A stretch of 42,802 nt of DNA, from positions 1-42,802 of the forward strand of contig JAYUZV010000039.1 of NCBI GenBank assembly GCA_043751475.1. Direction: 5' to 3'. Origin of the DNA: Chlamydiia bacterium (GTDB lineage Bacteria > Chlamydiota > Chlamydiia > Chlamydiales > JAYUZV01). The notes under the pieces were generated by a model that was not told the origin of the DNA, made no database searches, and was given only the letters and a program-made list of their open reading frames with translations. Made by a program: the position numbers and the translations under genes. This document shows positions 1,482-42,802 of the stretch, piece by piece. Each line of letters opens with the position of its first letter. Positions within the stretch are counted from its first letter, which is position 1.

Positions 1482-1720
1482 GAAGATAAAGAAAAGAAAA
1501 AGAAATTGGCAGGATAGAGGATGGCCAGGATCAGGCCAGGATAAGGCTAGGATAAGGCTAGGATAAGGCTAAGATAAGGAAAGAAAAAGAATAATTGTTA
1601 AAAAAATAAACAAAAACTCTTTTTCTTTATCCTTTCTTTCTTATCCTGACTATCCTGTTATCCGTGCCAACCTTTCTTTATCTTCCTTATCCCTGCTTTC
1701 TTATCCTGATATCTTGCGAC
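1482..1720. repeat. Palindromic intergenic element, locus 1 of the TTGGCACGGATAACAGGAT family
   Basis: Exact reverse core TATCCTGTTATCCGTGCCAA at 1651-1670; degenerate forward core AAATTGGCAGGATAGAGGAT from 1503; outer arms GAAGATAAAGAAA (1482-1494) / TTTCTTTATCTTC (1673-1685). Confidence 0.8.
1523..1577 (+). repeat. Tandem repeat, 5 x 11 bp (GGCYAGGATAA)
   Basis: ggccaggatca ggccaggataa ggctaggataa ggctaggataa ggctaagataa read directly from the sequence. Confidence 0.95.
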
Positions 1721-2926
1721 CTAACGAAGGCGGGTGGTGATGGAGGTGAGGGCAGTGATGAAAAAGTCGATGTCGGCAAGGGTGTTGTAGGGAGCAAAGG
1801 AGGCGCGTACAGAGGCGTCAAGGCCAAATTTGCGCAGTGCCGGCTGAGCACAGAGATGGCCCGTGCGCACGGCAATGCCGCGCAAATCAAGAAGTGTTCC
1901 AACATCAAGAGGGTGGACCCCATCAATCACAAAATTGCAGATAGCCCCTTTTTCACGCGCAGACCCTAATAGGCGCAGGCCAGAAATAGCGAGCAGCTTT
2001 TCTGTTGCATAGCCTAGCAACTTCTGCTCGTGCGCTTCAATCGCATCAAGACCGAGTGATTCGATATAGTCGATAGCAGCGCCAAGGCCAATCACCTCGG
2101 CAATCATCGGTGTACCTGCTTCAAAGCGCATCGGCGGAGCTTGAAAACGGCTATCGCGTAAATGGACAGAGGTAATCATATCACCGCCCGTCTGGTAGGG
2201 TGGCATCTGCTCAAGAATTTCGCGCTTGCCATAAAGAATACCAACACCTGTAGGCCCAAAACATTTGTGACCCGAAAATAGAAAGAAATCAGCGTCTAGC
2301 TTCTGCACATCAATTTTTAGATGGGCGGCACTCTGCGCGCCATCAACAGCAAATTTAGCCCCCACTGCATGAGCAAGCAGAATCATCTGCTCTATCGGGT
2401 TTTTAGTTCCGGTGCTGTTGGCAATATGAGCAATAGAAACAAGTTTGACGCTACTATCAAGTAGCTCCTTGTAAATAGCTAAATCTAGCTCTCCCTTTTC
2501 ATCCATGGGAATAAAGCGCAGTTCAATTCCCTTTTCGTGCGCAATCTGCTGCCATGGAACTAGATTAGCGTGGTGCTCCATCTCGGATAAGATAATAGCA
2601 TCCCCTTTCTGCAAAAAATGGCGTCCAAAACTATGGGCAAGCAAGTTAAAGCCGTCGGTTGTCCCTTTTGTAAAGATGATCTCGTCCGAAAAGCGCGCAT
2701 TTAAGAAGGTGGCCACCTTTTCGCGCACAGCGCAATAGCGGCCTGTGGCATCTGCGGCCAGCTTATATACGGCGCGATGGACAGTGCCGTAGTGATTTGC
2801 ATAAAAATCGCTCATCGCATCAATCACGCAGCTAGGCTTATGAGCCGTTGCTGCACTATCTAAATAGATCAGCTTACCGTCCTTAAAAATAGGGAAATCA
2901 GCGCGTACCTCCTTAAGATCCCGCAT
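1721..2926 (-). CDS. sufS: Cysteine desulfurase SufS
   Basis: YLDSAAT, SGHKCFGPTG (PLP lysine), RTGHLCAQP catalytic Cys; last gene of sufBCDS. Confidence 0.95.
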   Translation of the reverse strand: MRDLKEVRADFPIFKDGKLIYLDSAATAHKPSCVIDAMSDFYANHYGTVHRAVYKLAADATGRYCAVREKVATFLNARFSDEIIFTKGTTDGFNLLAHSFGRHFLQKGDAIILSEMEHHANLVPWQQIAHEKGIELRFIPMDEKGELDLAIYKELLDSSVKLVSIAHIANSTGTKNPIEQMILLAHAVGAKFAVDGAQSAAHLKIDVQKLDADFFLFSGHKCFGPTGVGILYGKREILEQMPPYQTGGDMITSVHLRDSRFQAPPMRFEAGTPMIAEVIGLGAAIDYIESLGLDAIEAHEQKLLGYATEKLLAISGLRLLGSAREKGAICNFVIDGVHPLDVGTLLDLRGIAVRTGHLCAQPALRKFGLDASVRASFAPYNTLADIDFFITALTSITTRLR

Positions 2927-4037
2927 ATCCCTCCACGTAGCTCAGCAAATAGGTGCGCCACTTCTCCTCGGGAATTTGAAAAAGCAGCTCCTGACAAAAA
3001 CTCTTTAAAAGAAGTCCCTTCGCAGCCTCTTTATCAATTCCGCGCGACTGCAAATAGAAAAGACTCTCCGCCTCAAGTAGCTGTACGGTAGCTCCGTGTG
3101 AGGCCTTTACATCGTCCGCAAAAATCTCGAGGTTCGGCTTACTATTTGCAATAACACTATCGTTTAAAAGCAGGTTGTTGTTGCGCTGATAGGCCTCTGT
3201 CTTTTGCGCAAGGCGGTCTACAAAAATTTTTCCCTCAAAACTGGTGCGCGAGCTCTCTTTTAAAACGTTTTTAAAGAGCTGGGTCGAGCGGGTCTCGGGC
3301 GCTAAATGGCGCATCGTGACGTGCGTATGGTGGTGGCGCGACTGCCCTACCATAGCCACACCTTGTAAAATCGCTTCGGCATGCTTTCCTTGCAGCTCAA
3401 CCTCAAAGCGGTTGCGCACCGCCTTCCCACCAAAACTTGTGGTCAGGCTCGTAAAAAAACTTCTCTCCGCTAGCTGCGCGCGCATTGATCCTAGTAGCCA
3501 GCTACTATTCCCAGGTTCGCAGTGTTGTAAATGGGTCACTCTAGCCCCTTCGCCAAGCGAAATATCGCAACTGATCTGCTGGCAGGCTCCATCCACTGAT
3601 AGCGCGTGGCAAACAAGTGAAACCTCAGCCCCTTTCCCGACAAAAACATGGAGGGCATCATAACTTTTACCTCCGCTAGAGAGGTGAAGCAAGCGCAGCG
3701 GCCTCTTGACCTTCGTGCCTGGCGCAATATAAAGCACAAGAGGCTCCTTGGCCTGATTGCGCACCTCGCTGGCAAAGAGATCGCTCTCGCTGCTTTTTAG
3801 CTGGCTAAGACGCTCCTGCAAAAAAGTTCCATAAATTTTCAGCGCCCTTGAAAGCGGCAGAGCCGTCACACCTTGTGGCAGATCACCTATTAAAATCTCT
3901 TGCTCGCCAAATGTAATTAGATTTTCCGAAGAAAAAAGAGGATGATCTTTTGCACAGACAGCCACCACTTTTTTTTCTGAAAAAGTAAAACTATCAAAGG
4001 CTGTTTTGGGGAAGTATTGCAGAGACTCTTGGCTCAA
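2913..4037 (-). CDS. sufD: Fe-S cluster assembly protein SufD
   Basis: [20 protein letters not shown] and LFYLQSRGI motifs; lies between sufC and sufS. Confidence 0.92.
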
Positions 4038-4798
4038 GTTTGCACCTCGCCAAATTCGGCGTAACCACTGGCTTCAAGGGCAAGCGAGAGTTCAGATCCG
4101 CCCGATTTCACAATTCTACCATCCACCATGACATGGACAAAATCGGGCTTAATAAGCTCCAAAAGACGCTGGTAGTGGGTAATAAGCAGCAGCGCATTTT
4201 CGCTTGTGCGCAGGGCTGAAATACCGCGCGCAACAACGCGCATTGCATCGATATCAAGGCCAGAATCTGTCTCGTCCAAAATTGCAAGTTTAGGGTCAAA
4301 AAGCGCCATCTGTAAAATCTCGTTGCGCTTCTTTTCACCACCAGAAAAACCTTCATTTAAACCGCGCTCTTTAAAATCATTTTTCATCTCAAGCAGTTTA
4401 CTCTTCTCATCTAGTAGCGCTGAAAATTCTTCTGGTGTCAGATCTTTTTTGCCAGCTCCCTTCATACGTGCATTGCACGCAGCGTGTAAAAATTGTGCGT
4501 TTGTAATACCAGGAATTTCAAGCGGATATTGGAATCCCATAAAAATACCGGCAAGAGCGCGTTCTTCTGGCTCCATCTCCAAAATACTGACTCCATTAAA
4601 GCGAATATCACCACCTGTTACGATATAGTCGGGATGGCCTGCAATAATTTTTGATAGGGTCGATTTTCCAGCCCCATTCGGACCCATAATGGCATGAATT
4701 GAACCCTTAGCAATTTTAAGTGATAATCCCCTCAAAATAGGGGTCTGATTAGCACCACTTACAACCGCTGCATATAAATTTTCGATCTCTAATAACAT
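4034..4798 (-). CDS. sufC: Fe-S cluster assembly ATPase SufC
   Basis: Walker [45 protein letters not shown] at 4798 preferred; the track ORF extends to 4813. Confidence 0.96.
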
Positions 4799-4805
4799 AT
4801 AAAAT

Positions 4806-6230
4806 TTACCCAACAGAATTTTCTAATTTTAACGATAAGAGTTTGCGCGCTTCAACAGCAAATTCAGCCGGCAACTCCTGAAAAACCTCTTTGCAAAAAC
4901 CGCTGACAACAAGATTGATCGCATCCTCGCGCGCAATGCCGCGCGACTGCAAATAGAAGAGCTGCTCCTCACTCATTTTTGATGTCGACGCCTCGTGTTC
5001 GACACAGCTCGAGCCATTTGCCACCTCAATATAGGGAAAGGTATTGGCACTGCACATATCTCCAACCAGCATCGAATCGCACTGCGTGTAGTTGCGCGCT
5101 CCTTTTGCTTTTGGTGCAATTTTTACAAGGCCACGGTAGGTGTTATGGGACTCATCGGCCGAAATGCCCTTCGAGATAATTGTCGAGCGGCTTCCCTCGC
5201 CAATATGGATCATTTTGGTACCCGTATCGGCCTGCATTTTTCCATTTGTTAGGGCAACAGAATAGAACTCGCCGATAGACTCTTTCCCCTGCAAAATACA
5301 CGATGGATATTTCCAGGTAATAGCAGCACCAGCCTCCACTTGAGTCCAGGTAATTTTTGATTTGTAACCAGCGCATCTACCACGTTTTGTCACAAAGTTA
5401 AAAATGCCACCCTTACCTGTTTTAGGATCACCTGCATACCAATTTTGGACTGTCGAATATTTAATTTCAGCCCTCTCTTTGGCAACAAGCTCTACAACTG
5501 CTGCATGCAGCTGATTATTGTCATATGCCGGAGCGGTACACCCCTCCAAATAGCTCACAGAGGATCCCTCTTCAGCGATAATCAGCGTCCTCTCAAATTG
5601 ACCCGACTCTTTGTCGTTAATTCTGAAATAAGTGGAGAGCTCCATAGGCGATTTAACACCTTTTGGCAAATAGACAAAAGAGCCGTCAGAAAAAACCGCC
5701 GAATTAAGCGCAGCAAAGTAATTATCGCCAATTGGCACAACAGACCCTAAATACTCCTCGAGCAGCGCCGGATACTTTTCAACAGCTTCTGTCATGGAAC
5801 AGAGCACAACACCCGCTTCATGCAACTTTTTACGGAAGGTTGTGCCTAGTGAAACCGAATCAAAGACAACATCGACAGCTACATTTGCCAGCTGCTTCTG
5901 CTCGTCTAGTGGGATGCCAAGCTTCTCAAAGGTGCGCAGCAGTTCCGGATCAACCTCTGATAGTGAACCGAGCTTTTTTTTTGTTTTAGGCACAGAGTAG
6001 TAGCGGATCTTGTCGTAATCAATAGCGCTGTAGTGAATATTCGCCCAAGCAGGCTCTTTCATCTCACGCCATTTTTTGTACGCTGCAAGGCGAAAATTGC
6101 GCAGAAACTCGGGCTCATTTTTTTTTGCGGAAATCAGACGTACGACATCCTCGGAAATCCCGCGTGGGAACTCCTCAGTTTCAATGGGTGTTGAAAAGCC
6201 ATACTTATAGCTCTCTTGCGAAAATTCCAT
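4806..6230 (-). CDS. sufB: Fe-S cluster assembly protein SufB
   Basis: [37 protein letters not shown] and EHEASTS motifs. Confidence 0.97.
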
Positions 6231-6249
6231 AACTCTCTATTTTTCACTG

Positions 6250-22513: not shown

Positions 22514-23684
22514 ACCCGCTCCCCTCCGCTAAATTCTTTCCCTTCCACTTTTGCAGGGTCTCTTCTGTAGGATAGTAGAAGTCTGCTGCTAATTCAAATT
22601 TTTTATTGTCAGCAGACGCTCCAGTGACACGCTTAAACTGAAGCCTATCGCGCACTTGTAGCGCCGCCTGCACACTATCAAAACTATCCGGACCTGTCCT
22701 GTTTTTTAAGGGTGCAAAAATCTCTTCACGGGGGAAAGCAACCACACCAAAGCGCTTACCGCTGCGAAAATTATCAAAGATAAAGCTCTCAAATTTATAA
22801 AGACCAGATTTCTCGGCCACATGAAGTGGCAAAGCTGTAACCTCTGCCGCACACGCCTTAATAAACTCCATCGAAAAGAGATAGATCCCACTATTTCCAA
22901 GCGGATATTTGTCGCTGAGTAAATCCGCTTCACTGCACTCAAAGTAATCCGCAACGGCCAACCTCCCATCAACCTCTCCAAGTAACCCCATCTTCTTATC
23001 ATCAGCGCTGCGAATGACGCCAACTAGCGTCACATCATTATTTTTCTGGGCTTGCAATCCAAGCAAGTCTAAATCAAACGGATCTGCAAGTGCATTATCG
23101 ATAGAAAGAGTTGTGACAGAAGAAACACCACGCGATTCGAAAAGTTTAGCAAGTCCTGTCTGCATAAAAAGCGAGAGAACCTCTCCATTGCCATTTGGCG
23201 CGCAGACTACATCACCATTCTTATCAAAAATGGCCTCTCCATTTTTATTTAACGAGGGCAGCATCCCTTGCTCAAAAATTTCAATCTGCTCCTTTTGCAG
23301 CCCAAAATAGTTGCCCTCCACCAGATGCTCTTCAATAGCCCTGCTATTTAATGGTGAAACCATAATAGCAAGCGGAATCTGCCGGCCATACTTTTTGCCC
23401 GCTGCTACAACCTTTTCGCACATCAAATGTAAAAGGGTTTTACATCTAAAACGCGTCACAGGGATCAGCGCTTTTGGCAGATCACTTCCAAGCCTACTCC
23501 CTTGCCCTCCCGCCAGCAAAAGCACCCCAATCTTCCTGTCGAAAAGCAGCTGCTCACCGATCTTCTGGCGCTCGAGATCTCCGCGGTTTTCAAATGTTTC
23601 TAGTGGAGCCAGATGAATTACCTTTTTCTCATGCTCAAGATGCTCCCGCAGCCTACCCACCACCTTGCCTAAAAGCTCATCCAC
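22500..23684 (-). CDS. Eukaryote-type UDP-N-acetylglucosamine/UDP-sugar pyrophosphorylase (UAP1/AGX family)
   Basis: LLAGGQGSRLG..PK, PNGNG, IDNAL, KFESFIFD, FAPLKN. GTG at 23684 has a GGAGG RBS just upstream; the track ORF starts at 23729. Confidence 0.88.
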   Translation of the reverse strand: MDELLGKVVGRLREHLEHEKKVIHLAPLETFENRGDLERQKIGEQLLFDRKIGVLLLAGGQGSRLGSDLPKALIPVTRFRCKTLLHLMCEKVVAAGKKYGRQIPLAIMVSPLNSRAIEEHLVEGNYFGLQKEQIEIFEQGMLPSLNKNGEAIFDKNGDVVCAPNGNGEVLSLFMQTGLAKLFESRGVSSVTTLSIDNALADPFDLDLLGLQAQKNNDVTLVGVIRSADDKKMGLLGEVDGRLAVADYFECSEADLLSDKYPLGNSGIYLFSMEFIKACAAEVTALPLHVAEKSGLYKFESFIFDNFRSGKRFGVVAFPREEIFAPLKNRTGPDSFDSVQAALQVRDRLQFKRVTGASADNKKFELAADFYYPTEETLQKWKGKNLAEGSGYVRA

Positions 23685-24783
23685 GCTTTGCCTCCTCTTC
23701 CTTAAACGCCTGATAAACCATATCAACACTCACCCCTTTCATGCACCTATGATCAATCGGACAGTGTTTCTGATAACAAGGTGAGCAGCCCACCACATGC
23801 TTAACAACAGATCCCCAGCGATAGGGCCTCATTTCGACGTTGCTGGATGAACCAAAAATAGCGACTAGTGGCACTTGAAGAGCTGCTGCAATATGCATAG
23901 GACCACTATCAATTGCAATCACACACTTGCTTAGCTTAACGATCCCCATCATTTCGCGAATTGTTGTCTCTCCTGCCAAGTTTATCACTTGGTAACCCTG
24001 ACCATCAAAGGCCTTTTCTATTACACCCCTATGCGTTTTGTTACCAATAACAACAATAAAAAGCGCTGGATTTTCTTTCTGTATTTTATCAGCGAGCTCC
24101 CTGAAGCGCTCCACACCCCAATGGCGAGCCGTACCATGGCTGCATAAAGGAGAAAATACGACGATTTCAGCCTCTTTTGGAACACCCTTTTTTAATAAAA
24201 AATTCCGAGCACTAACCACTTCTTCTTCTGAAACAAGCAGAATGGGGCACTGCTCAAAATAGGTGACACCGATTGGTGCTAGCAAACACTGGTGCTTTTC
24301 GACATCGGGGATCTGTTTTTCGTTTGGGTTGGGATCGATCAGATGCGTCATAAAAACTTTACACAAGTATTTGTTTTTACTTAAATAGCCCAATCTAACC
24401 CGAATTCTTGCCAAAAAACAGCAAATTAACTGTGATTTACATACCTTGCTAGATCCATCTCGATAGAGAATAATAGCGAGGTTCATTCCTCTAAGTTTTT
24501 TCGCTGTTTTAAATATCTCAATCCATCTAACAAAAAAAGAGCGCGATCTAAAATTCGAGGTCCTGTAAACCCTATCAATATCCGGATGCCCCTTTAAAAC
24601 TTCTTCACACGAAGGGTTGTTAGATAAAAAGGTAATATGCGCATCTGGATATTTTGTTCTTAGAGCGGTGCAGACAGGAATCGCGACAACCATGTCACCG
24701 AGTGCGCTTGGAGCGCACACAACAATTTTTTTGGGAGCCAAATCTTCTATTAACTCCTCTCGATTAATCTTCACTGCTAACAC
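23677..24783 (-). CDS. GT9 glycosyltransferase (WaaF/heptosyltransferase II-like), paralog C
   Basis: PSALGDMV, NLAGETT, IDSGPMHIAAAL..P.VAIFG, C-terminal CSPC....CPIDHRCM. Confidence 0.9.
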   Translation of the reverse strand: MLAVKINREELIEDLAPKKIVVCAPSALGDMVVAIPVCTALRTKYPDAHITFLSNNPSCEEVLKGHPDIDRVYRTSNFRSRSFFVRWIEIFKTAKKLRGMNLAIILYRDGSSKVCKSQLICCFLARIRVRLGYLSKNKYLCKVFMTHLIDPNPNEKQIPDVEKHQCLLAPIGVTYFEQCPILLVSEEEVVSARNFLLKKGVPKEAEIVVFSPLCSHGTARHWGVERFRELADKIQKENPALFIVVIGNKTHRGVIEKAFDGQGYQVINLAGETTIREMMGIVKLSKCVIAIDSGPMHIAAALQVPLVAIFGSSSNVEMRPYRWGSVVKHVVGCSPCYQKHCPIDHRCMKGVSVDMVYQAFKEEEAKRG

Positions 24784-24799
24784 CTTTTTCTAATTCTCT

Positions 24800-25135
24800 C
24801 TAAAAAGCCTGGTAGACCATATCAACACTCACCCGCTTCATACAGCGATGGTTGATAGGAGACGTATGCAGCGCACAGGATAGACAGCCAACCTGACTTT
24901 TGACAACGCTCCCAACGCGGTAGGAGCTTGTTTCAACTAAGGTGACCGATCCTATCATTGCGACAAGCGATTTTTTAAGCGCAACCCCGATATGCATCGC
25001 GCCCGTATCAATAGTAATTAGGGCGTTGCTAATTTTAATCAGCACAAAGACCTCTCTAAGTGTTGTCTGCCCAGCAAGAGAGATAATGCGCCCCATTTCT
25101 GAGGGCCCAGCTCCTGCTCAATCACTTGCCGATTG
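24800..25135 (-). pseudogene. Duplicated 3' fragment of the GT9 gene at 26273-27406
   Basis: Nearly colinear with ~26308-26642 with scattered substitutions, a 1-bp indel at the C-tract (CCCCCC to CCCCA), a premature TAG and a Cys-to-Ser change in the C-terminal motif; no N-terminal domain. Confidence 0.85.
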
Positions 25136-25157
25136 TCCGTCTCTTGCTCTCTTTTTT

Positions 25158-26276
25158 TTATTTTATCCATGCATCCGCCTTCTGTTTACCTAACTCTTCT
25201 TGAAAAGCTCGGTAGACCATATCGACGCTAACCCCTGTCATACAGCGGTGGTCGATAGGACAGAGGTGAAGAAGACATGGCGAGCAAGCGACCCGTTGTT
25301 TCACCACACGGCCCCACCCATAAGGACCTGTTTCCACATCGCTTGAAGCGCCAAAAATTGCGACAAGAGGCACTCTTAGCGCTGCAGCAAGATGCATAAT
25401 ACCTGTGTCAACTGTAATGACGCCTCTACTGATTTTAACTAGGCCCATCAGCTCCCGAACGGTTGTCCCCCCCATAAAGGAGATCACGCGCGGCGATAAA
25501 CCTCGAATTGCTTCCTCAATTGTATTTCGATAATGATCAGACCCGACAAAAAGAATAAATACTGTTTTATCTTCCTCTATAAATCTTTTCACCAGCTCAA
25601 TAAATCGATTTAAATCCCAGTTTTTTGCTTTGTCGTATGGAGCTGCTTTCGGACTTATAACAAGCAGCTTTGATCCTTTAATATACCCTTTTCCCTCCAG
25701 CCTTTTTAATGCGGAAGTTTCCTCGTCTGCTGTAACAAAAAGAGTGGGCACCTCGTTAAAGTGAGTAACACCAAGAGAAGCTAAAAGAATCTGATTTTTT
25801 TCAACATCATGTAAATGTTGTCGCATCTTAGGGTTGGGAATAGGGTGGGTAATAAATAAGTTGGCAAACCAGCGCCTGTCAACTGACTCCTTATACGCAA
25901 GCCGGTTTTTAACCCCACCAAAAACAAGCGAGAGCATCGGGCTTCTCTCGTTCCGCATGATGACACCTAACTCATAGGAGGAAAGCTTGCGTCTCATTTC
26001 GGACAGAATCTTAAACTTTTCAATTAGGGACTTGCCCTTGTAATTGGGGTAAAAATAAAGATCATCAACGTCGGAATGACCCTCAAAAACCCTCTCATAT
26101 GAACCAACCGTTTCCGGCTTCCCGCCCATAGCTGTAATATGAGCTTTCGGGTAGAGCATACGTATTTGTTTAAAAACAGGCGCAGCCATAACGGCATCTC
26201 CAAAAAACCTCGGCAGTACAACCACAATCTTTTGTGGATTTAACTTTTTTAGGGCTTCGTATTTACGTTTATTCAC
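25158..26276 (-). CDS. GT9 glycosyltransferase (WaaF-like), paralog B
   Basis: PRFFGDAVM, AKNW, VDTGIMHLAAAL, CSPC....CPIDHRCM. Confidence 0.9.
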   Translation of the reverse strand: MNKRKYEALKKLNPQKIVVVLPRFFGDAVMAAPVFKQIRMLYPKAHITAMGGKPETVGSYERVFEGHSDVDDLYFYPNYKGKSLIEKFKILSEMRRKLSSYELGVIMRNERSPMLSLVFGGVKNRLAYKESVDRRWFANLFITHPIPNPKMRQHLHDVEKNQILLASLGVTHFNEVPTLFVTADEETSALKRLEGKGYIKGSKLLVISPKAAPYDKAKNWDLNRFIELVKRFIEEDKTVFILFVGSDHYRNTIEEAIRGLSPRVISFMGGTTVRELMGLVKISRGVITVDTGIMHLAAALRVPLVAIFGASSDVETGPYGWGRVVKQRVACSPCLLHLCPIDHRCMTGVSVDMVYRAFQEELGKQKADAWIK

Positions 26277-27406
26277 CGATTTGCCTTCTCTTTTGCCATC
26301 TCTTCTTGAAAAGCGCGGTAGACCATATCAACACTCACCCGCTTCATACAGCGATGGTCGATAGGACAGGTATGCAGTGCACAGGATAGACAGCCAACCT
26401 GACTTGTGACAACGCTACCAACGCGATAGGGACTCGTTTCAACTAAGCTGGCCGATCCTATGATTGCGACAAGCGGTTTTTTAAGCGCAACCCCGATATG
26501 CATCGCGCCCGTATCAATAGTAATTAGGGCGTTGCTAATTTTAATCAGCGCAAAGATCTCTCTAAGTGTTGTCTGCCCAGCAAGAGAGATAATGCGCCCC
26601 CCTTTCTGAGGGCCCAGCTCCTGCTCAATCACTTGCCGATTGCGCGGCTCGCCGATAAAAACAACAAAAGCTGACGGGTCTTCAGCAACAATTTTTTGGG
26701 CTAAAAGGACAAACCTCTCCATATCCCAATGTCTGGCTACCGCATTGCCCATCGCCCCTTTTGGGTTGACTGCAATGATTTTTGCCCCCAGCGGACAGCC
26801 GATCCTTCTCACCATTTCCAGGGCCCGCATCTCCTCTTGTTGAGTCACAAAAATTTCTGGCACTTCATCAAAAACTTTCACTCCAAATGGCAAAAGAAGC
26901 TCTTGGTGTCTGCGTATATTGTGCATCACCCATTTCTTTTCCAGCCGACGATGTGTGAGAAAAAATGATTTGACGATGCTGGGAAAATTGAGGTAGGAGT
27001 GTCCGAGGCGCACCTTAACTCCTGCAAGAAAAAAATGAACAGCATGTGAACAGAAGTCCGCCGCGTGCAAAGAGATTGCGAGGTCAAACTGCCCGTTCTT
27101 TAAAAAAGCAATGCGCTCTTTAAATAAGCCCCATTTTTTAATTAACGACCCCTTCCATCGTGGATAGGCGTAGATGTTATCGACATCAGGATTGCCCTCA
27201 AGCGCCGCACCCGAACTGGCGCACATGGCTGTAATATGGGCTTTTGGAAATCTCTTGCGCAAAAGGGTTAAAAGCGGAATAGCCATAATAAGATCGCCCA
27301 AACAGTTTGGCATTTTAACGATGATTTTTTTGGGAAGAAAATTGGAGAGATCTTTCATCGAAAATAAGTGGTTTATTTGAAGTTTTTTCGGGCATGAATC
27401 TAACAT
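26273..27406 (-). CDS. GT9 glycosyltransferase (WaaF-like), paralog A
   Basis: MPNCLGDLIM, SLAGQTTL, IDTGAMHIG, CLSC....CPIDHRCM. The true start may be ATG 27358. Confidence 0.9.
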   Translation of the reverse strand: MLDSCPKKLQINHLFSMKDLSNFLPKKIIVKMPNCLGDLIMAIPLLTLLRKRFPKAHITAMCASSGAALEGNPDVDNIYAYPRWKGSLIKKWGLFKERIAFLKNGQFDLAISLHAADFCSHAVHFFLAGVKVRLGHSYLNFPSIVKSFFLTHRRLEKKWVMHNIRRHQELLLPFGVKVFDEVPEIFVTQQEEMRALEMVRRIGCPLGAKIIAVNPKGAMGNAVARHWDMERFVLLAQKIVAEDPSAFVVFIGEPRNRQVIEQELGPQKGGRIISLAGQTTLREIFALIKISNALITIDTGAMHIGVALKKPLVAIIGSASLVETSPYRVGSVVTSQVGCLSCALHTCPIDHRCMKRVSVDMVYRAFQEEMAKEKANR

Positions 27407-33671: not shown

Positions 33672-35183
33672 ATGGAAAACGAAATAACAAACGCCCCTCT
33701 ACCTGAAACAAATAGACCCCCTCAAGAGAGTGGTGGAGAAAATCGCCGAAGGGAGCGCACTGGAAGGAGTAACGACAGAAGAGGCAATCGAGATCATACC
33801 AATCGGCCGCGTCCTCCTCAGAGCGGCGAAAGAGCGCCCCATCGCGAGAGAACCCCCATGCCAAAAGAGGAAGGCGAAGAGCTGCTGAACTACAGCGACC
33901 TACCCCCTGAGGATCCAACGCCTGCAATCACAACGATTGCCGAGCTTCAGCGTATGCCGATTGAGCAGCTAACCGGCGTTGCCAAAATGTTCCAGATAAA
34001 AAATATGGGCAAAATGAATAAAGCCCAGATTGTCCACCTGATTGTGAAAGCAAAAATGGAACACTATAAGGCCAATATGATTGCCGAAGGTGTCCTTGAT
34101 TTACACCACGAAGGATTTGGCTTTCTGCGCTCACCTTTTTTCAACTATATTAGCTCAGCCGAAGATGTCCATATTTCGCAGTCGCAGGTGCGTAAAAATA
34201 ATTTGAAGCGTGGCGATTCTGTTAAAGGCCATATCCGCATACCGAAAGAAGGCGAACAATATTTTGCACTTGCAAGTGTGCTTACTGTCAACGATGATGA
34301 TATCAGCTCTATGAACGAGCGAATCGCCTTTGAAAATTTAACACCCCTCTTCCCAGATACGCGCTTTTTTCTTGAAACTGCAAAAAACAAATTGACACCG
34401 CGCGTTCTCGACCTCTTTATTCCCCTTGGAAAAGGACAGCGCGCACTGATTGTGGCGCCGCCTAAAACCGGAAAAACAACAATGCTACAAGATATTGCCA
34501 ATGCGATATCTCAGAAGTATCCCGAGTGCGTTTTAAAGATTCTTCTTATCGATGAGCGTCCAGAGGAAGTGACGGATATGATCCGAAACGTCAAAAATGC
34601 AGAGGTCATCGCCTCTACATTTGATGAACCGGCAAGCCGCCACGTTAAAATTGCCGATATGGTAATTGATAACGCAAAACGCCTGGTTGAGCACGGAAAA
34701 GATGTGATTATCCTACTTGACTCGATTACCCGTCTAGCGAGGGCCTATAACATGGTCGAGCCGCACTCGGGCAAGGTTCTTTCTGGTGGTGTTGACGCTA
34801 ATGCCCTTCATAAACCAAAACGTTTCTTTGGTGCCGCAAGAAATATCGAACATGGCGGATCACTCACGATTATTGCCACAGCCCTTGTAGACACCGGTTC
34901 GCGGATGGATGAGGTTATTTTTGAGGAGTTTAAAGGTACAGGAAACGCGGAGATTGTCCTGACACGCGAGCTCTCGAATAAGCGCCTCTACCCAGCCATT
35001 GACCTTCTTAAATCCGGCACGCGTAAAGAGGAGCTGCTCTATGACCCTCAAGAATTGCTGAAAATCAACCTTCTACGGGTCACTCTTGCTGACCTTGGCA
35101 GCTACGACGCGATGAATATGCTGCTAAGGCCGCTCACGGCGTCGGGTAGCAACGTCGAGTTTCTCCTCTCCCTCAAGGGATAA
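33672..35183 (+). CDS. rho: Transcription termination factor Rho
   Basis: [43 protein letters not shown]; charged low-complexity N-terminal extension. Confidence 0.98.
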
Positions 35184-35186
35184 GTA

Positions 35187-35653
35187 GTTGCACGATACAA
35201 AGATAAGCAAGACAAGAAAGCAAAATTGGCACGGATAACAGGATAAGAAAGGATAAGAAAGGATAAGTAAGAAAAATAATTAATTAAATAGTAAAACCAA
35301 CAGCGTCTAACGAAGGGTGTGTACAACGAATTGTGTAAACGTCTTTTTCTTGCCTTTTCAAAAGCCTTCTTCCCACCCCTGATTTCTTTCTTTATCATTT
35401 ATATCATCACATCATTCCAATCATTTAATTCTAAAACAAATTAACGATCGAAATGATGCGATGATATAAGTGATAAAGAAATTATTTATTTAATAAAAAC
35501 CTGAATTCCCCCAAAAAAACCAATTCTCATTGGATCCGTTTACACGGTGCGTTAAACCCTGTCGGTTTTACTATTTAATTAATTATTTTTCTTACTTATC
35601 CTTTCTTATCCTGTTATCCGTGCCAATTTTCCTTTACTTGCTTATCCTTGCTG
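35187..35653. repeat. Large nested palindromic element, locus 2 of the family
   Basis: Outer arms 35222-35303 / 35559-35630 (one mismatch plus one extra 10-bp unit), extending imperfectly to ~35198/35650; inner arms 35387-35422 / 35446-35481 (32/36). Confidence 0.92.
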
Positions 35654-35750
35654 ATCTGTTCTCCATCTTTCTGATCCGTGCTTTACAAAGATATCGGATA
35701 ACTCTATCATCCCCCACTTTCATCAGTAGTGAAAACCCAGGTGGTAGATT

Positions 35751-37385
35751 ATGAAACGGTGGAGCCTCCTCGTTCTAGTCCTTCTTGCAGCAGCAGCTCT
35801 TTTTGTTAAAAGCAAAGAGCGTGATCGTAGCAATAACCCTGTCCAAGCCGGCCAGTTTTTACGGCTTAACCTAGAGCGCGAACCAGCAACACTCGACCCG
35901 CGTAAAGGAGGCGATGTCGTTTCGACCTCTCTTCATTTCATGCTCTTTAACGGCCTTGCCAGAGTTGGCGCTGACGGCAAAACCCAGCTCTCTGGAGCCG
36001 ATTCCTACACACTGTCAACAGATAAATTGACATACACATTTTATTTGAAAGAGGCAACATGGTCAAACGGCTTGCCTGTAACTGCACACGACTACGAATA
36101 TTCATGGAAAAAAATTGCTGACCCTATATTTCCAGCCCCAAATGCCCACCTGATTTATCCCATTAAAAACGCGCGTGCCTGTAAAGAAGGGAAATTACCC
36201 ATTAGCGAACTGGGTGTAAAAGCTCTAAGCGACAGAACACTGGTTGTCACCTTGGAAAGACCCTGCCCATATCTCCTCGATTTACTCTCTTTCTGCATCT
36301 TTTTTCCTATTAGTAAAGAGAATGAACTGATTTACTCCGACTGGGCCTATAATAAGGGCGACCGTTTTGTTTGTAATGGCCCATTTTTATTGAAAGAGTG
36401 GAAGCATCAGAATGAGATTTTACTTGTTAAAAACCCCCATTACCTCGAATCAACCCTCATTAAACTGAGCGGCATTCATATGTCAATGGTCGCAAGTGAG
36501 AACACCGCACTGCAGATGTATGAAAAAGGAGAGCTCGATCTACTGACAACCTCCGCTTCACACCTACCTATTGATTCTATTGAAAGACTTAAGCAGCGCG
36601 GGTACCTCCATATTCATCCATCGGCCGCGAGCACATTTTGTACATTTAACACCTCAAAAAAACCCTTTTCTAACATTAATATTCGCAAAGCCTTTGGCTA
36701 CGCCATTAACCGCCAAGAGCTGGTGGATAATATCACACAACTCGGAGAGCCTATTGCCACAGGACCTATTCCTCCGCTATTAAAAAATGGCCGCAACCGT
36801 CTTTTTTTTCGAGATGGAGATAAAGCGGCAGCTAAAGCCTATTTAGCGAAGGGTCTGGAAGAACTAGCCATCAAAAAAGAGGAGTTAAATAGTCTCACCT
36901 ACACCTATTCAATCTCCGAATCAAATGACAAAATTGCGCAAGCAATTCAGCAGCAGTGGAAGGAAACTCTTGGTGTTACTGTTAATTTGTGCAGCACAGA
37001 GCATAAGACACTACTAGATAAACTCGGTAAGCGCAATTACGACTTTGCCCAAGCTATTTGGGTTGCCCAGTATCCAGACCAGGTCAATATTTTAGAGCGC
37101 TTTGCCCTGAAAGATAATGTGAAAAATTATGCTGGATGGGAGGACCTTTCCTACATGCGGCTGCTAAATCGCTCGAATAATGAATTTGACTCCGAAGAGC
37201 GGGCCCTCACTCTTGAAGAAGCCGAAGAACGCTTTGTCGAGATGATGCCGGTAACTCTGCTTTTTCATATGAATTACGCATTTCTGATACAGCCCTATGT
37301 GCGTGATGTCTCTTTTACTCCCATGGGTTTTGTGCTAATCGAGCACCTATCCATTAATAAAGAGGAAAAAGCACGGCAAAAATAG
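35751..37385 (+). CDS. oppA: Oligopeptide ABC transporter substrate-binding protein (OppA family)
   Basis: EPATLDP, TYTFYLK..WSNG.PVTAHDY, NGPFLL, KNPHY, RKAFGYAINR; N-terminal anchor. Confidence 0.9.
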   Translation: MKRWSLLVLVLLAAAALFVKSKERDRSNNPVQAGQFLRLNLEREPATLDPRKGGDVVSTSLHFMLFNGLARVGADGKTQLSGADSYTLSTDKLTYTFYLKEATWSNGLPVTAHDYEYSWKKIADPIFPAPNAHLIYPIKNARACKEGKLPISELGVKALSDRTLVVTLERPCPYLLDLLSFCIFFPISKENELIYSDWAYNKGDRFVCNGPFLLKEWKHQNEILLVKNPHYLESTLIKLSGIHMSMVASENTALQMYEKGELDLLTTSASHLPIDSIERLKQRGYLHIHPSAASTFCTFNTSKKPFSNINIRKAFGYAINRQELVDNITQLGEPIATGPIPPLLKNGRNRLFFRDGDKAAAKAYLAKGLEELAIKKEELNSLTYTYSISESNDKIAQAIQQQWKETLGVTVNLCSTEHKTLLDKLGKRNYDFAQAIWVAQYPDQVNILERFALKDNVKNYAGWEDLSYMRLLNRSNNEFDSEERALTLEEAEERFVEMMPVTLLFHMNYAFLIQPYVRDVSFTPMGFVLIEHLSINKEEKARQK

Positions 37386-37439
37386 ACGAATTTTAGCTGC
37401 GTGTTGTACATTCCTCTGTAGAAAAGCAAAGACTCCTCT

Positions 37440-38273: not shown

Positions 38274-38291
38274 AGCTTTTATAAGGATTAA

Positions 38292-38321
38292 TTGCTGTAA
38301 AATAAGCTGGCGCGTTATGAT
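38292..38321 (+). promoter_or_regulatory. Putative promoter for tRNA-Ser (and dnaB)
   Basis: TTGCTG-18 bp-TATGAT ending 20 nt before the tRNA. Confidence 0.55.
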
Positions 38322-38340
38322 CAGTGCTACTTCTCATTGC

Positions 38341-38430
38341 GGATAGGTGGCTGAGTGGTCGAAAGCACGTCCCTGCTAAGGACGCGTACCCTGTTAAGGG
38401 GTACCGTGGGTTCGAATCCCACCCTATCCG
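38341..38430 (+). tRNA. tRNA-Ser(GCT)
   Basis: Acceptor GGATAGG/CCTATCC with discriminator G, anticodon arm CGTCC-CTGCTAA-GGACG, long variable arm GTACCC..GGGTAC, T loop TTCGAAT. Confidence 0.97.
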
Positions 38431-38489
38431 AATTCTACCCTTATGCGCTATAGTGCAAATCTAATACGCTAAATGGATCTTCAGACGAC

Positions 38490-39941
38490 ATGAGCAGCGA
38501 AATTTCCCCTTCCAAAACAAAGACCCCTCCGCACTCGCGAGAATCAGAGATGATGGTCCTCGGTTGCATGCTAACCAACATCAACAGCCTTAATATTGCA
38601 TCTGATTCGCTTGACGATACCGACTTCTATTTCACAGAACATAAAATTGCTTTTCAGATCTTAAAAAGCTGCTACAAAAACGACAGGCCAGCTGATATTC
38701 ACCTCGTTTCAGAAGAGCTAAAACGGACAAATAGTCTCGAATCTGTTGGCGGTATTCCCTACCTAACAACACTGGCTCAATTTGCCGGTACATCGGCCTA
38801 CATCGAAGAGTATGTCGAAATTGTGCGCAGTAAATCAATTCTGCGTAAAATGATTCTTGCCTCGCAAGATATTGAAAAGAGTGCCCTTGAAGAGCCCGAA
38901 AATGTCCATACAGCGCTGGACAACGCTCAAGCCAAATTTTTCCAGATTAGCCAACTCTCAAACATGGCTGCCGGCGTCCAAATTAAGGATCTCCTCTCCG
39001 GCTTAAAATCGGCCTCGCAGGTTCCCTACCTGAAGCAGCTCGAAGAGCGCCAAGAGAACTTCCAAACCCGCGGTCCGGACGACCCGGGCATCACAGGTAT
39101 TCCAACCCATCTGCACGACTTAGATAAGATGATTAACGGCCTCAATAAATCAAACCTGATGATTATCGCCGGCCGTCCTGCAATGGGTAAAACTGCGCTG
39201 GCGCTAAATATCGCAGAAAACCTCTGCTTCAAAAACAAACTACCTGTCGGAATTTTCTCGCTTGAAATGAGCGCAGAACAGCTTCTGCACAGGGTCATCT
39301 GCTCGCAATCTGAGGTGGAATCGGACAAACTCGTTACAGGATCGCTCAACGGCTCTGAATTTCAGCGCGTAGTTGCCTGTGTTAACGGCATGCAGAAGCA
39401 CACGATGATTATCGATGACCAGCCGGGACTGAAAATCTCCGATTTGCGCGCAAGAGCCCGCCGCATGAAAGAGGCGTATGACATTCAGGTGCTGATTATC
39501 GACTACCTCCAGCTTATTTCGGGAAATAACACCTCAAAATCGGGTGATAATCGCCAAGCCGAGATCTCCGAAATCTCGCGTATGCTCAAAAACCTCGCGC
39601 GCGAGCTCAATATTCCCATTATCTGCCCCTCGCAGCTCTCCCGTAAAGTGGAGGAGCGCGCCGGCCACCGACCGATGCTAAGCGACTTGCGCGAATCGGG
39701 CTCGATCGAGCAAGATGCCGACCTAGTTCTGCTGCTGCTGCGCCGCGACTACTACGACCCGTACGACAAGCCGGGCATGGCCGAGATCATCATCGCTAAA
39801 AACCGCCACGGCGGCGTCGGTAGCGTCAACCTCGCCTTCCGCAAAGAATTGGCCCAATTTACCAATTACAACTCCTCACTATCGCCATCCGGCGGTGCTC
39901 CGGAAGAAGATGACGCCTTTTCTGCGTTCACTCCCGGATAG
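38490..39941 (+). CDS. dnaB: Replicative DNA helicase
   Basis: GRPAMGKT, FSLEMS, IDYLQL, SQLSR, DLRESGSIEQDAD, KNRHG; no intein. Confidence 0.98.
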   Translation: MSSEISPSKTKTPPHSRESEMMVLGCMLTNINSLNIASDSLDDTDFYFTEHKIAFQILKSCYKNDRPADIHLVSEELKRTNSLESVGGIPYLTTLAQFAGTSAYIEEYVEIVRSKSILRKMILASQDIEKSALEEPENVHTALDNAQAKFFQISQLSNMAAGVQIKDLLSGLKSASQVPYLKQLEERQENFQTRGPDDPGITGIPTHLHDLDKMINGLNKSNLMIIAGRPAMGKTALALNIAENLCFKNKLPVGIFSLEMSAEQLLHRVICSQSEVESDKLVTGSLNGSEFQRVVACVNGMQKHTMIIDDQPGLKISDLRARARRMKEAYDIQVLIIDYLQLISGNNTSKSGDNRQAEISEISRMLKNLARELNIPIICPSQLSRKVEERAGHRPMLSDLRESGSIEQDADLVLLLLRRDYYDPYDKPGMAEIIIAKNRHGGVGSVNLAFRKELAQFTNYNSSLSPSGGAPEEDDAFSAFTPG

Positions 39942-39958
39942 TTTTTTCGGGTGGGCTC

Positions 39959-39995
39959 TTTACAATTTTAAGGCTATACTCTAGACTATAGCCTT
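39959..39995 (+). promoter_or_regulatory. Putative promoter with an overlapping palindrome, upstream of the 31-aa ORF
   Basis: TTTACA (39959)-17 bp-TAGACT (39982); inverted repeat AAGGCTATA-N8-TATAGCCTT at 39970-39995. Confidence 0.6.
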
Positions 39996-40019
39996 TATAA
40001 CACTTGTGGAGTGAACGAG

Positions 40020-40115
40020 ATGTCTAGTGTCAAGATGAAGCGCCGATACAAAATTGCCAAACACAAGCGCAAAAAGATAAGCCGTAAAAACCGCCACAAG
40101 AAAAAACTCCCGTAA
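40020..40115 (+). CDS. 31-aa basic protein of the bS22/mS38 (AURKAIP1/COX24-domain) family
   Basis: My translation: MSSVKMKRRYKIAKHKRKKISRKNRHKKKLP*; GGAG RBS 8 nt upstream; own promoter; below the ORF-track length cutoff. Confidence 0.85.
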   Translation: MSSVKMKRRYKIAKHKRKKISRKNRHKKKLP

Positions 40116-40207
40116 AGAAAATTTAATTAGTTAGAAAAACTTAAATTTTCTTCTCCCTCTAGCAATAGGGGTTTCCTGTTTATAAATTTTTTAGTTAAGA
40201 GTGCATT

Positions 40208-42034
40208 ATGTGGAACTATCCAGAGACTTTCGATCTGATTGTCATTGGCGCGGGCCATGCAGGCTGTGAAGCGGCCCATATCGCTGCCAAAATGGGGTGC
40301 AAAACTCTTCTGCTCACCATGTCTCTTGATACTGTCGGTAAAATGAGCTGCAACCCAGCTATTGGTGGCACTGCCAAGGGGCACATTGTCCGCGAAATCG
40401 ATGCACTCGGCGGTATTATGGGAAAAGTAGCCGATCAAACGGCTATCCAATCCAGGATGCTCAACCGCTCGAAAGGCCCTGCCGTCTGGTCTCCCCGCAC
40501 ACAAAACGACCGCTTTGCCTACCAGGCAGTTATGCGCAAACGGCTTGAGCAGACTGAAAACCTCTATCTCAAACAAGGAACTATCGAATCGCTTTTTATC
40601 GTAAATGATAAAATTGAGGGTGTCGATACGCAAGAGGGCATACGCTATGTCGGAAAAAGCGTTGTCATCTCATCCGGCACCTTTCTCCGCGGAAAAGTCT
40701 TTATTGGTGAGACCACCTACGCAGCCGGCAGGGCTGGTGACCAGCCCTCCATTGGCCTATCGAAAGAGCTTGAAAAGCTTGGATTTAACCTAGGGCGCCT
40801 TAAAACAGGCACACCTCCACGCGTCCACAGACGCAGCATCGATTTTTCCAAAATGGAGAAGCAGGAAAGTGAGCACACCGTCCGCTTCTCGTACGATGCT
40901 GCTGAGAGCGCCCCTCTTCCTCACATCTGCTGCTGGATTACCTACACAACAGCAGCATCAAAAGATATTATTGTAAAAAACATCCACCGCTCGGCTATGT
41001 ACAGCGGAAAAATAGATGGCATCGGCACGCGTTACTGCCCATCTATTGAGGATAAATTTATGCGCTTTCAAGATAAGGAGCGCCACCAGCTATTTATTGA
41101 ACCGGAAGGTCTCGATAGCGAAGAGTTTTACATCAACGGCATCTCATCATCGCTTCCATTCGATGTGCAACTACCGCTTCTGCACTCGGTGATTGGGCTT
41201 GAAAATGCAGAGATCATGCGTCCTGCCTATGCTATTGAATATGATTATGTCAAAAGTGGTCAGCTCTATAACACACTCGAGACAAAGAAAATTAAGGGGC
41301 TATTTTTAGCCGGCCAAATTAACGGTACAACAGGTTATGAAGAGGCTGCTGCACAGGGGCTAATGGCCGGTATTAATGCGGCATTGCAAGTGCAAAATAA
41401 ACCCTCTTTTTCTTTAAAACGCAGCGAAGCTTATATCGGTGTTTTAATTGACGAGCTAATTGCAAAAGAGCTGACAGAGCCCTATCGCATGCTCACCTCC
41501 CGTGCAGAGCACAGGCTTCTGCTTCGCCAAGATAATGCTGACCTGCGACTACGCGAGCATGCGTGGAATCTCGGCACAATTACCTCCGCTCAATACGCGC
41601 GCTACCTCCATAAAAAAGAGTGCGTCGAGGGCGAGACAAAAAGGCTAGACAAGAGCTTTGTCCACTATCTAGGAGAGTCAATTGCAATTGGCAAACTATT
41701 GACACGGCCAGAAGGAAACTACCAGACACTTTTAGAGGCTTACAGCGATAAAGTGAACGATCACGGCGAGGAGATCAACCTACAAATTGAGCTGCTGCTG
41801 AAGTATGCAGGTTACATCAAAAAACAAGAATTAGAAGTGAATCGCCTTGAAATGAGCGAGAATATCACAATCCCACGCGACTTTAATTTTCTACCTATCA
41901 CCGGATTGCGAATTGAGGCCAAGGAAAAACTCCATAAATTTCATCCCGCGACAATCGGCGCGGCTAGCCGCATTTCAGGTGTTTCGCCCGCCGATATTTC
42001 AGTTCTTCTCGTCCATTTACGCGCTACTCTATGA
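40208..42034 (+). CDS. mnmG: tRNA uridine-5-carboxymethylaminomethyl(34) synthesis enzyme MnmG (GidA)
   Basis: [56 protein letters not shown]. Confidence 0.98.
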
Positions 42035-42738
42035 CCCTCAAATGTATCCACACCAAAAACTACCCCATATTTGAGCAGCTGAAGCTAGAGGAAGCCCTTC
42101 TACGCGCAGATAACGGCAATTGGTGTATCATTAATGAGGGTACGCCTGATAAATCAATTGTCATGGGACTTTCAGGTAAAGCCGATGAGCTGATCGACCT
42201 GCCAAAAGCAGCGCGCGACTCCATTCCTATTATCCGTCGCTTTAGTGGTGGAGGCACTGTTATTGTCGATAAGGAGACTCTCTTTGTCACCTTTATTTTT
42301 AATAAAGAGAGCCACCCCTTTCCGGCCTATCCAATGGAACTCATGCAGTGGAGCCACGCCATCTACCAAGAAGCATTCAAATCGCATACACCTCTGCTGC
42401 TGCGCGAAAATGATTATGCAATTGGAGAGAAAAAATGCGGTGGCAATGCACAATATATCAGCCGTACTCGCTGGCTTCACCACACCTCATTTCTATGGGA
42501 TTTTAACCCCCAATCTATGCACTATCTACTCCATCCAAAGCGCACACCAAAATATCGTGCCGAAAGATCTCACCTCGATTTCCTCTGCAAATTATCAACA
42601 ATTTTTCCATCAAAAGAACTCTTGCTTACCTCTCTTAAAACCCACCTCAATTTACTCTACGGCCTCACCGAAATCCCTCTAGAACAAGCCTCCCAAATCC
42701 TCTCCCTTCCCCACACCTCCACCACCACCCAAATGTAA
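42031..42738 (+). CDS. lplA: Lipoate--protein ligase A family protein (catalytic domain only)
   Basis: [22 protein letters not shown] motifs; ATGA overlap with mnmG. Confidence 0.88.
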
Positions 42739-42748
42739 ATCTGCTTTA

Positions 42749-42802
42749 CAGCAAGGGTTAACAAGCTAAAAAGGGAAGAAAAATTGGCACGGATAACAGG
42801 AT
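42749..42802 (+). repeat. Locus 3 of the TTGGCACGGATAACAGGAT family (cut by the window edge)
   Basis: AAAATTGGCACGGATAACAGGAT at 42780-42802 is identical to 35222-35244; upstream CAGCAAGG..CAAG matches the reverse complement of 35637-35653. Confidence 0.9.

Follow-up and report, generated by a model that had tools for sequence, protein, structure and literature searches.

The window and its element loci

The stretch of DNA described here, hereafter the window, is the whole of contig C39 (JAYUZV010000039.1), 42,802 nucleotides (nt) long, from a draft genome of a Chlamydiia bacterium (GCA_043751475.1) that comprises 1,322,379 bases in 114 contigs, with a GC content of 45.8%, an estimated completeness of 88% and an estimated contamination of 0.24%. 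Its genes are housekeeping ones, i.e. sufSDCB, kdsB, a long PBP2, rpsB-tsf-pyrH-frr, tyrS, ispD, polA-coaE-rho, an oppA-like gene and dnaB-mnmG-lplA, and the orders polA-coaE-rho and dnaB-mnmG-lplA match those of Chlamydia trachomatis, which makes the chlamydial assignment likely. Our subject is a palindromic, gene-less element that follows the stop codons of three of these genes, sufS, rho and lplA, and belongs to a large family dispersed throughout this genome.

A first-pass annotation of the window had noticed a 23-nt core repeated at three unlinked intergenic loci. This core, AAAATTGGCACGGATAACAGGAT, is present exactly at 35222-35244 (+), 35608-35630 (-) and 42780-42802 (+), with a match in none of 100 shuffles. 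The copy reported near 1651 is a 23-mer at 1652-1674 (-) with two mismatches, and its degenerate forward partner at 1503 is real, being a second type of arm with a core of its own (the B core) at 1506-1531 (+). All three loci are genuine, except that the third is an element cut by the assembly, the contig ending inside its core. The features under discussion are as follows.

1441 to 1470, plus strand: intrinsic-terminator-like hairpin, outside the family, with a 13-bp stem containing 6 GC pairs and a T-run tail (TTTTTACTTG)
1482 to 1720, unstranded: element locus 1, a foldback without the three-hairpin module described below, with arms homologous to many contigs
1506 to 1531 (core), plus strand: B-type arm of locus 1, with a 5.2-copy array of the 11-nt unit GGCCAGGATAA at 1523-1579
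About 1580 to 1625, unstranded: AT-rich centre of locus 1, between the B-type and A-type arms
1652 to 1674 (core), minus strand: A-type arm of locus 1, which reaches to 3 nt from the sufS stop codon (1721-1723)
35184 to 35700, unstranded: element locus 2, an atypical 517-bp foldback directly after the rho stop codon (35181-35183)
35222 to 35244 (A core), plus strand: left arm of locus 2, with an array of the unit AGGATAAGAA at 35240-35271
35270 to 35590, unstranded: interior of locus 2, palindromic, single copy, 320 bp, between two 'AT-rich-side' ends
35608 to 35630 (A core), minus strand: right arm of locus 2, with an array at 35591-35656
35751 (start): oppA-like gene, downstream of locus 2
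42739 to 42802, plus strand: third element, left arm only, with an A core at 42780-42802; the arm begins after the lplA stop codon (42736-42738)

Each of the two complete loci folds back on itself, as had been reported, with predicted RNA folds of -103.6 kcal/mol for locus 1 (1418-1720, minus strand; z = -8.6) and -187.9 kcal/mol for locus 2 (z = -17.1). Their interiors do differ, that of locus 2 (35270-35590) being single copy in the genome, and the only open reading frames (ORFs) of locus 2 are short and unconserved. The reported reiteration of GGATAA around the core corresponds to arrays with a period of 10-11 that TRF detects at 1523-1579, 35240-35271 and 35591-35656. Likewise, the spacing of some 40-50 nt between stop codon and core is borne out, with 46 nt (sufS), 38 nt (rho) and 41 nt (lplA) from the end of the stop codon to the 23-mer, or 53, 45 and 48 nt, respectively, to a conserved 16-mer inside the core, and so is the resemblance of the stop-to-core segments after sufS and rho, which by direct reading match at 19 of 25 positions. 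That the core lies just after stop codons is confirmed with one correction, namely that the arms extend to the stop codons themselves. Since the NCBIfam alignments of SufS and Rho reach the normal C-termini of these proteins, the gene is intact at both loci, and the element begins only a few bases beyond it. As for the third element, its arm is homologous to more than 20 other contigs and its core ends exactly at the contig end.

The terminator-like hairpin at 1441-1470 lies directly 3' of a porin-like ORF at 155-1417, and locus 1 lies between this hairpin and the sufS stop codon. It is the only site of this kind that a simple scan finds near locus 1, and it is outside the element; a simple consensus scan for a GC stem followed by a T run finds none in 35100-35800, around locus 2. 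The ORF itself (plus strand, 420 aa) matches a Legionella major-outer-membrane-protein domain (Legionella_OMP, E = 2e-31) and has no match in NCBIfam.

A family of 88 loci

The three loci first noticed in the window are a small sample. Genome-wide (1.32 Mb), the 23-mer occurs in 21 exact copies and in 86 with at most 4 mismatches, and an independent count gave 82 with at most 3. The most conserved 16-mer, with up to 2 mismatches, has 94 matches, which resolve into 25 convergent pairs, with the two cores separated by 135-395 bp (mode about 240), and 44 single arms. The B core has 59 matches, 29 of them at loci that have neither an A core nor a module, and the three-hairpin module is present in 40 complete copies and one truncated at a contig end, none of which is in C39. 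When all these features are merged, there are 88 loci, or about one per 15 kb. This count is a minimum, because contig ends cut elements and the true copy number is consequently higher: 30 of the 228 contig ends (13%) lie within 250 nt of a family feature, compared to 3.9% of the genome, and the orientation of the arms at these ends is that expected of broken elements.

A draft in 114 contigs that break at repeats invites the suspicion that the family is an artefact of metagenome assembly or binning, made of chimeric joins or of repeats from a foreign organism. This is scarcely credible, since 25 complete pairs lie inside contigs between ordinary genes, the contamination estimate is as low as 0.24%, and contigs assembled from four sequencing runs reproduce the flanks and the single-copy interior of locus 2. 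These Logan contigs break at the cores of locus 2, and the depth of the interior equals that of the flanks, at about 10-14.

Anatomy of the element

The copies are imperfect palindromes, about 250-400 bp long, each with two inverted purine-rich arms, which are arrays of 8-11-nt GGATAAG-type units, and each arm holds a core of type A (AAAATTGGCACGGATAACAGGAT) or type B (TTGGCAGGATACAGGATGGGCAGGAT). From the outside in, a full element consists of an outer motif, purine-rich units (GCAAGATAAG, AAGAAAG), the core, CAGGAT/GGATAAG units and the module, after which come a variable stretch, an AT-rich centre (TTAATTAATTA) and a mirror-image, pyrimidine-rich arm. The outer motif, (A)GCAMNGATMA, is found in 51 of the 94 arms, 26-100 nt (mostly 35-60) outside the core, and is a weaker copy of the core motif, the two being versions of one word (GCACGGATCAGCAAGAT vs GCACGGATAACAGGAT). 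Among the short-period units of the whole genome, AAAGATAAG and AAAGGATAAG are the commonest and 8-10-nt GGATAAG-type units dominate, GGATAAG itself being 15 times denser in intergenic than in coding DNA. Polarity is invariable, with purine-type (+) arms always 5' of pyrimidine-type (-) arms, composite loci included, and the inverted-repeat alignment of the arms extends some 50-60 nt past the core. Because A and B arms can pair together, B represents a variant of the arm, not an element in its own right. The core GGCACGGATAACAGGAT, read directly, has no internal inverted repeat; in 89 arms it carries about 2 bits at 14 of 16 positions, with RGAT motifs at 8-9-nt spacing.

Coding capacity is lacking. 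All six frames contain a stop in 24 of the 25 paired elements, and the module ATG, preceded as it is by a perfect Shine-Dalgarno-like GGAGGA, yet opens no conserved frame, the ORFs that start there having 10-120 codons in shifting frames. A conserved small ORF starting at GGAGGATAAATG was considered and ruled out, as its lengths and frames vary.

Composite copies also occur (contigs C58:7742-8130 and C24:5029-5289), one being an element with two oppositely oriented modules and another a long palindrome in which B, A and B arms alternate and no module is present. Their layout suggests nesting or arm duplication.

A three-hairpin module under constraint

The module is asymmetric and about 100 nt long, and an alignment of 39 copies folds into three hairpins. 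Support for this fold is comparative: 96.5% of the cells are in standard pairs, a figure that falls to 50-71% in slid controls, and 10 of the 29 pairs show changes on both sides, compared to 3.1 in shuffles, 10 being reached by none of 500 shuffles. Hairpin 2 is the most telling in detail, with covariation in 7 of its 8 pairs, one of which is CG in 19 copies, UA in 17 and broken in 3. Two invariant G-U pairs favour the module strand as oriented here. A candidate closing helix (module columns 3-7 with 83-87) is 80% paired and shows no covariation. The RNA of a typical module-bearing copy is predicted to fold with -148.5 kcal/mol (z = -11.7).

Constraint is unevenly distributed within the copies. 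The mean pairwise identity of the module is 0.905 in stems, 0.514 in loops and 0.724 in the other unpaired columns, for 0.796 over whole copies (range 62-93%). Core retention was counted from the modules outward, in order to avoid selecting on the core itself, and an A core with at most 2 mismatches accompanies 32 of the 39 modules at the 5' flank (19 of these cores perfect) and 25 of them at the 3' flank (13 perfect), compared to a best match of mostly 6-9 mismatches in random 110-nt windows. Cores and stems are thus kept far better than the loops of the same copies. Even the most similar pairs of elements share only 80-86% identity (over 276-346 bp), which marks the family as old.

Two readings fit this pattern, either (i) past copying of lineages with intact cores and stems, followed by silence and a decay of about 5-7% per copy, or (ii) selection by the host at present. 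We prefer past copying followed by silence as the more economical, because cores and stems have decayed to an extent that agrees with how far the closest pairs have diverged.

Placement at the 3' ends of genes

Elements are strongly biased in where they lie. Both flanks are resolved at 57 loci, of which 29 separate convergent genes, 25 tandem and 3 divergent ones, and the 939 spacers of the genome, as defined by a crude gene map, comprise 148 convergent (16%), 647 tandem and 144 divergent. If one considers only spacers of at least 40 nt, 4 or more GGATMA motifs are present in 28 out of 82 in the convergent class, 20 out of 273 in the tandem class and 3 out of 126 in the divergent class. For 62 of the 94 cores, an ORF that reads inward and has 120 codons or more ends within 250 nt, and in 48 of these 62 cases the stop codon is 21-58 nt before the core, i.e. 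inside the arm or at its edge. The stop codons of these adjacent ORFs are TAA in 27, TAG in 27 and TGA in 8, for 595, 229 (23%) and 190 genome-wide, and many of them read TAGCA..., GATAAG or TGATCA inside the outer motif. No element is located inside a gene, which is explained by the closure of paired elements in all six reading frames.

This placement, together with the constraint on cores and stems, is what would be expected of a 3'-end module recruited by the host, whose copies are now under selection as bidirectional transcript-end structures serving as a read-through block, an RNase III site or a barrier to 3'-exonucleases. Half of the resolved loci are convergent, as against 16% of all spacers; about a third of the longer convergent spacers contain arrays; the predicted hairpins are very stable on either strand; stems and cores have been kept and loops have drifted in copies that are about 80% identical; a gene for RNase III is present in the genome, on contig C51; and the convergent-gene bias is shared with SPRITE and REP, as stated in passages of PMC3184786. 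Two of these points are, however, also expected otherwise, the conservation if only copies with intact cores and stems could be copied and each then decayed by about 5-7%, and the 3'-end placement under purifying selection alone. Furthermore, no terminator-like site was found by the simple scan inside locus 2, a canonical terminator adjoins locus 1, and in tandem contexts the module has no preferred orientation with respect to the upstream gene (4 sense, 8 antisense). We judge host recruitment to be rather unlikely.

Much the same bias could arise at the level of DNA, if cores and phased GGAT units bound a nucleoid or topology protein at sites where supercoils accumulate between converging transcripts, on the model of REP/BIME. 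The sharp conservation of the 23-nt core beside variable spacers, the recurrence of RGAT motifs every 8-9 nt and the enrichment between convergent genes would suit such arrays, and BIMEs bind IHF, DNA polymerase I and gyrase according to the relevant lines of PMC3184786. We regard this as very improbable, since there is no candidate protein for the core, the 8-9-nt spacing is off the helical repeat, and the compensatory changes in the module point to the folding of a single strand and not to the recognition of a duplex.

Mobility

The first-pass annotation had proposed a REP- or MITE-like (miniature inverted-repeat transposable element) family mobilised in trans. The first half of this proposal stands, as this is indeed a dispersed, non-coding, palindromic family, now of 88 loci; the second half is less secure, as no transposase, consistent target duplication or empty site was found and the closest copies are only 80-86% identical. 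The window contains no transposase, as had been said, and a six-frame search of the whole assembly found none of eight Pfam families, i.e. Y1_Tnp (Y1/RAYT, PF01797), DDE_3 (IS630-type), DDE_Tnp_1, rve, Transposase_mut (IS256), DEDD_Tnp_IS110, the TnpB zinc-ribbon and DDE_Tnp_ISL3, in searches that gave matches in control genomes and on an assembly complete to 88%, so that a partner could have escaped assembly. The genome has no long high-identity repeat that could be an insertion sequence, no contig that resembles a longer element with cargo, and no core pair more than 395 bp apart or around a gene; a copy whose arms enclose a gene, which the first-pass annotation had suggested looking for, is thus absent from this assembly. 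No direct repeats are seen at the ends of 22 aligned paired elements (of 25), which are too variable to be fixed to the base and could hide a short target duplication. The outer motif is preceded by A in 29 of 51 arms and by TA in 10, and the idea of an insertion into the TA of stop codons that rebuilds TAG was dropped in view of the latter figure. No joint corresponding to an empty site at 35184-35700 occurs in the contigs of the four runs, contigs that break at the cores; these runs come from one study, carry the labels metagenome or sediment metagenome, and perhaps represent the sample that yielded this DNA. Loci related by Rho were found in two unrelated metagenome-assembled genomes only, with no empty site. 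In addition, core and stem conservation could equally reflect a present host function, the canonical terminator beside locus 1 means that the host needs no element for termination there, and, although arms appear either to abut the stop codon or to supply it, the word 'supply' rests on the position of the outer motif in arms whose outer ends are variable. Mobility is, in short, something that we infer.

Distribution and a possible link to intervening sequences

The study genome is the only member of its family in the set compared, and its order comprises dozens of families, whose genomes range from 0.8 to 4 Mb. In 400 other genomes of this order (46 families, 215 genera) the core is absent. 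A covariance model of the module matched none of 150 same-order genomes, since the five weak matches that it returned, three of them orthologous, are plain hairpins of A and T runs. Searches by exact pattern for the core found none in genome contigs (for which a 21-mer was used), metagenome contigs and viral contigs, in collection scans that may leave out the records of the window itself, and blastn of the full element found none in plasmid and phage collections. In Rfam, which the first-pass annotation had named as a place where a described family might be matched, there is no match either: only 4 tRNAs of the window reach the gathering score, and with E up to 1 three module-bearing loci gave two chance-level matches, both outside the elements.

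The three orthologous hairpins occupy the same position in three congeneric genomes of the order, and have the form of an A run and a T run (GGCAAAGCAAAAAAAC...GTTTTTTTGCTTTGCC). Similar in style to hairpin 1 of the module, this hairpin may be the local form of bidirectional terminators in the order.

The architecture of the arms recalls intervening-sequence cassettes, of which the rRNA intervening sequence (IVS) of Coxiella is an example (PMC4990558). Could the elements be gene-less derivatives of such a cassette, the full copy of which, with a gene for the 23S-rRNA-IVP (a four-helix-bundle protein), is in an unassembled rRNA operon or has been lost? The arms are short-unit tandem arrays here too, with periods of 10-11 in the window and the units AAAGATAAG and AAAGGATAAG genome-wide, and at both complete window loci these arrays are inverted; IVP genes score above the Pfam cut-off in 56 of 400 same-order genomes; at 15 of 20 IVP loci examined the gene lies between two inverted arrays whose units are 6-7 nt long, GGGCACG and GGGCAAG being frequent; GCACGG/GCAAGG is common to these arrays and to motifs of the family; and no 23S rRNA gene has been assembled, so a copy in rRNA could not be seen. 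Against this, PF05635 has no match in the genome at E up to 0.1 (six candidates scored), no copy encloses a gene, units are 8-11 nt here and 6-7 nt there, and most IVP loci have the pyrimidine-type array 5' and the purine-type array 3', which is the reverse of the order here (L071 is an exception). A conserved core and a three-hairpin module are missing from IVP loci, the latter having no match to its model in the 150 genomes of the order, a common 6-mer is weak evidence, and seven metagenome contigs with a 27-nt array show no IVP gene nearby. Descent from such a cassette is thus doubtful, and the link is architectural only.

The array units at IVP loci (L066-L085) include GGGCACG, GGGCAAG, GGTCTC and CTCCGAA, and gene-less palindromic arrays adjoin the IVP gene at some of them, e.g. 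L075 and L082. The exact 27-nt array, GGATAAGAAAGGATAAGAAAGGATAAG, is found in 7 unrelated metagenome contigs (L087-L093), directly after the pntB stop codon in L093 and as part of an inverted array pair in L091; in three related metagenome contigs it is beside small GC hairpins and a DUF4326/SLOG gene.

A broader version of this idea is that a class of selfish hairpins with repeat arms exists, flanking IVP genes in many chlamydiae and in other phyla, and that our family is an amplified, gene-less branch of it that homes to the extreme 3' ends of genes, the core and the covarying module being the recognition structure for an enzyme acting on a folded single strand. We put this forward as a speculation and consider it unlikely.

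Comparison with known systems

Among the nearest analogues are the hairpin MITEs of transcribed spacers, which, in the pages of PMC3184786 concerned, include Correia/NEMIS in Neisseria, ERIC/IRU in enterobacteria, and RUP, BOX and SPRITE in Streptococcus pneumoniae. Like them, the elements are non-coding, a few hundred bp long or less, and present in dozens of intergenic copies with inverted ends and stable hairpins; like SPRITE, as portrayed in those pages of PMC3184786, they are biased to gene 3' ends and convergent genes; and like BOX they are modular. Two marks of a MITE were found, terminal inverted repeats (the 25 convergent core pairs) and lack of coding capacity, and two were not found in this assembly, a target-site duplication and an autonomous partner with the same ends. 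Here, unlike in hairpin MITEs, no target duplication or partner insertion sequence was found, the arms are built of repeated 8-11-nt units and contain a motif twice, instead of being simple terminal repeats, and there is an inner, covarying three-hairpin module. The family is set apart from these MITEs by its architecture, and it has no match in Rfam.

With REP/REPIN, the family has in common two conserved short inverted sequences around a variable spacer, a hairpin form and a location between convergent genes. The ends of GTAG REPs often give a TAG stop codon to flanking ORFs, as described in part of PMC3733652, and a comparable donation may occur here, where 27 of 62 adjacent ORFs end in TAG compared to 23% genome-wide. 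Donation of stop codons by repeat ends is therefore not new, having been reported for REPs in that part of PMC3733652. However, the core is not palindromic, there is no GTAG or CGTC tag, the bases before TAG are mixed (C, T, G, A), the assembly has no Y1/RAYT gene, and the elements are 3-10 times longer than a REP doublet. REPs as regulators in 3' untranslated regions are the subject of a 2026 bioRxiv preprint.

Two other kinds of element are comparable in part. IVP (S23p) cassettes, which occur in the same order, are also hairpin elements with inverted arms made of short-unit arrays, but the study genome has no IVP gene, unit length and array polarity differ, and core and module are extra. 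Rickettsia palindromic elements (RPEs) insert in frame inside genes, unlike the elements here, which are closed in six frames in 24 of the 25 paired copies and of which none is inside a gene. The likeness is that of a palindromic repeat family spread in the reduced genome of an intracellular bacterium. RPEs are named in a table of PMC3184786.

Overall, the family behaves as a bacterial MITE/REPIN, with inverted conserved ends and non-coding, multi-copy, hairpin-forming elements that are tolerated at gene 3' ends, and yet it fits no named family fully, as no target duplication, partner transposase, RAYT, IVP or Rfam match was found. Its placement, selfish-repeat logic and hairpin form are ordinary. 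What is unusual is (i) arms made of unit arrays with duplicated cores, (ii) three covarying hairpins and (iii) a very high density in a 1.3-Mb genome in which none of the eight transposase families searched for was found. The first-pass annotation knew of no such family in Chlamydiae, and our literature search agrees, having found no description of a chlamydial family of this kind.

Other features of the genome

Two sets of genes elsewhere are mentioned for completeness. The genome contains 4 TLC/NTT nucleotide-transporter genes (contigs C73, C22, C62 and C109), 3 of which are strong matches, a set consistent with an energy-parasitic intracellular lifestyle. In the window, three paralogous lipopolysaccharide heptosyltransferase-like genes (family 9 glycosyltransferases) lie in tandem at 23677-27406, and a 98-aa ORF among them (24800-25096), which matches only the C-terminal part of their domain, is probably a gene fragment.

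An old family of gene-less repeats

Taken together, these findings describe what is probably an old, lineage-specific, gene-less interspersed repeat family of the MITE/REPIN kind. Its history might be pictured as follows. The family would have multiplied with the help of a trans-acting enzyme that needed both the cores and the stems of the module, because these have stayed intact across copies in which loops drifted. Copies would have survived almost only at gene 3' ends, since anywhere else an element with stops in all six reading frames would disrupt a gene or a promoter. At gene 3' ends, arms would touch the stop codon or provide it, and transcription through the element from either side is predicted to give a long RNA hairpin, which RNase III would probably cleave and which would probably impede read-through. 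The family seems to have ceased spreading long ago. By analogy with REP and SPRITE, its elements could plausibly act at transcript ends.

The consequences are both practical and biological. Interspersed hairpin repeats have rarely been documented in chlamydiae, and here one family is present in 28 of the 82 convergent spacers that are 40 nt or longer, about a third, and is associated with 13% of contig ends where 3.9% would be expected, which is relevant for the assembly and annotation of genomes recovered from metagenomes in this way, and for the identification of stop codons and 3' ends in them. The contrast between cores and stems that have been kept and loops that have drifted provides a defined candidate recognition structure for whatever copies these elements. 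Finally, the architectural link to the IVP cassettes of relatives is a testable lead on how that widespread class of elements moves.

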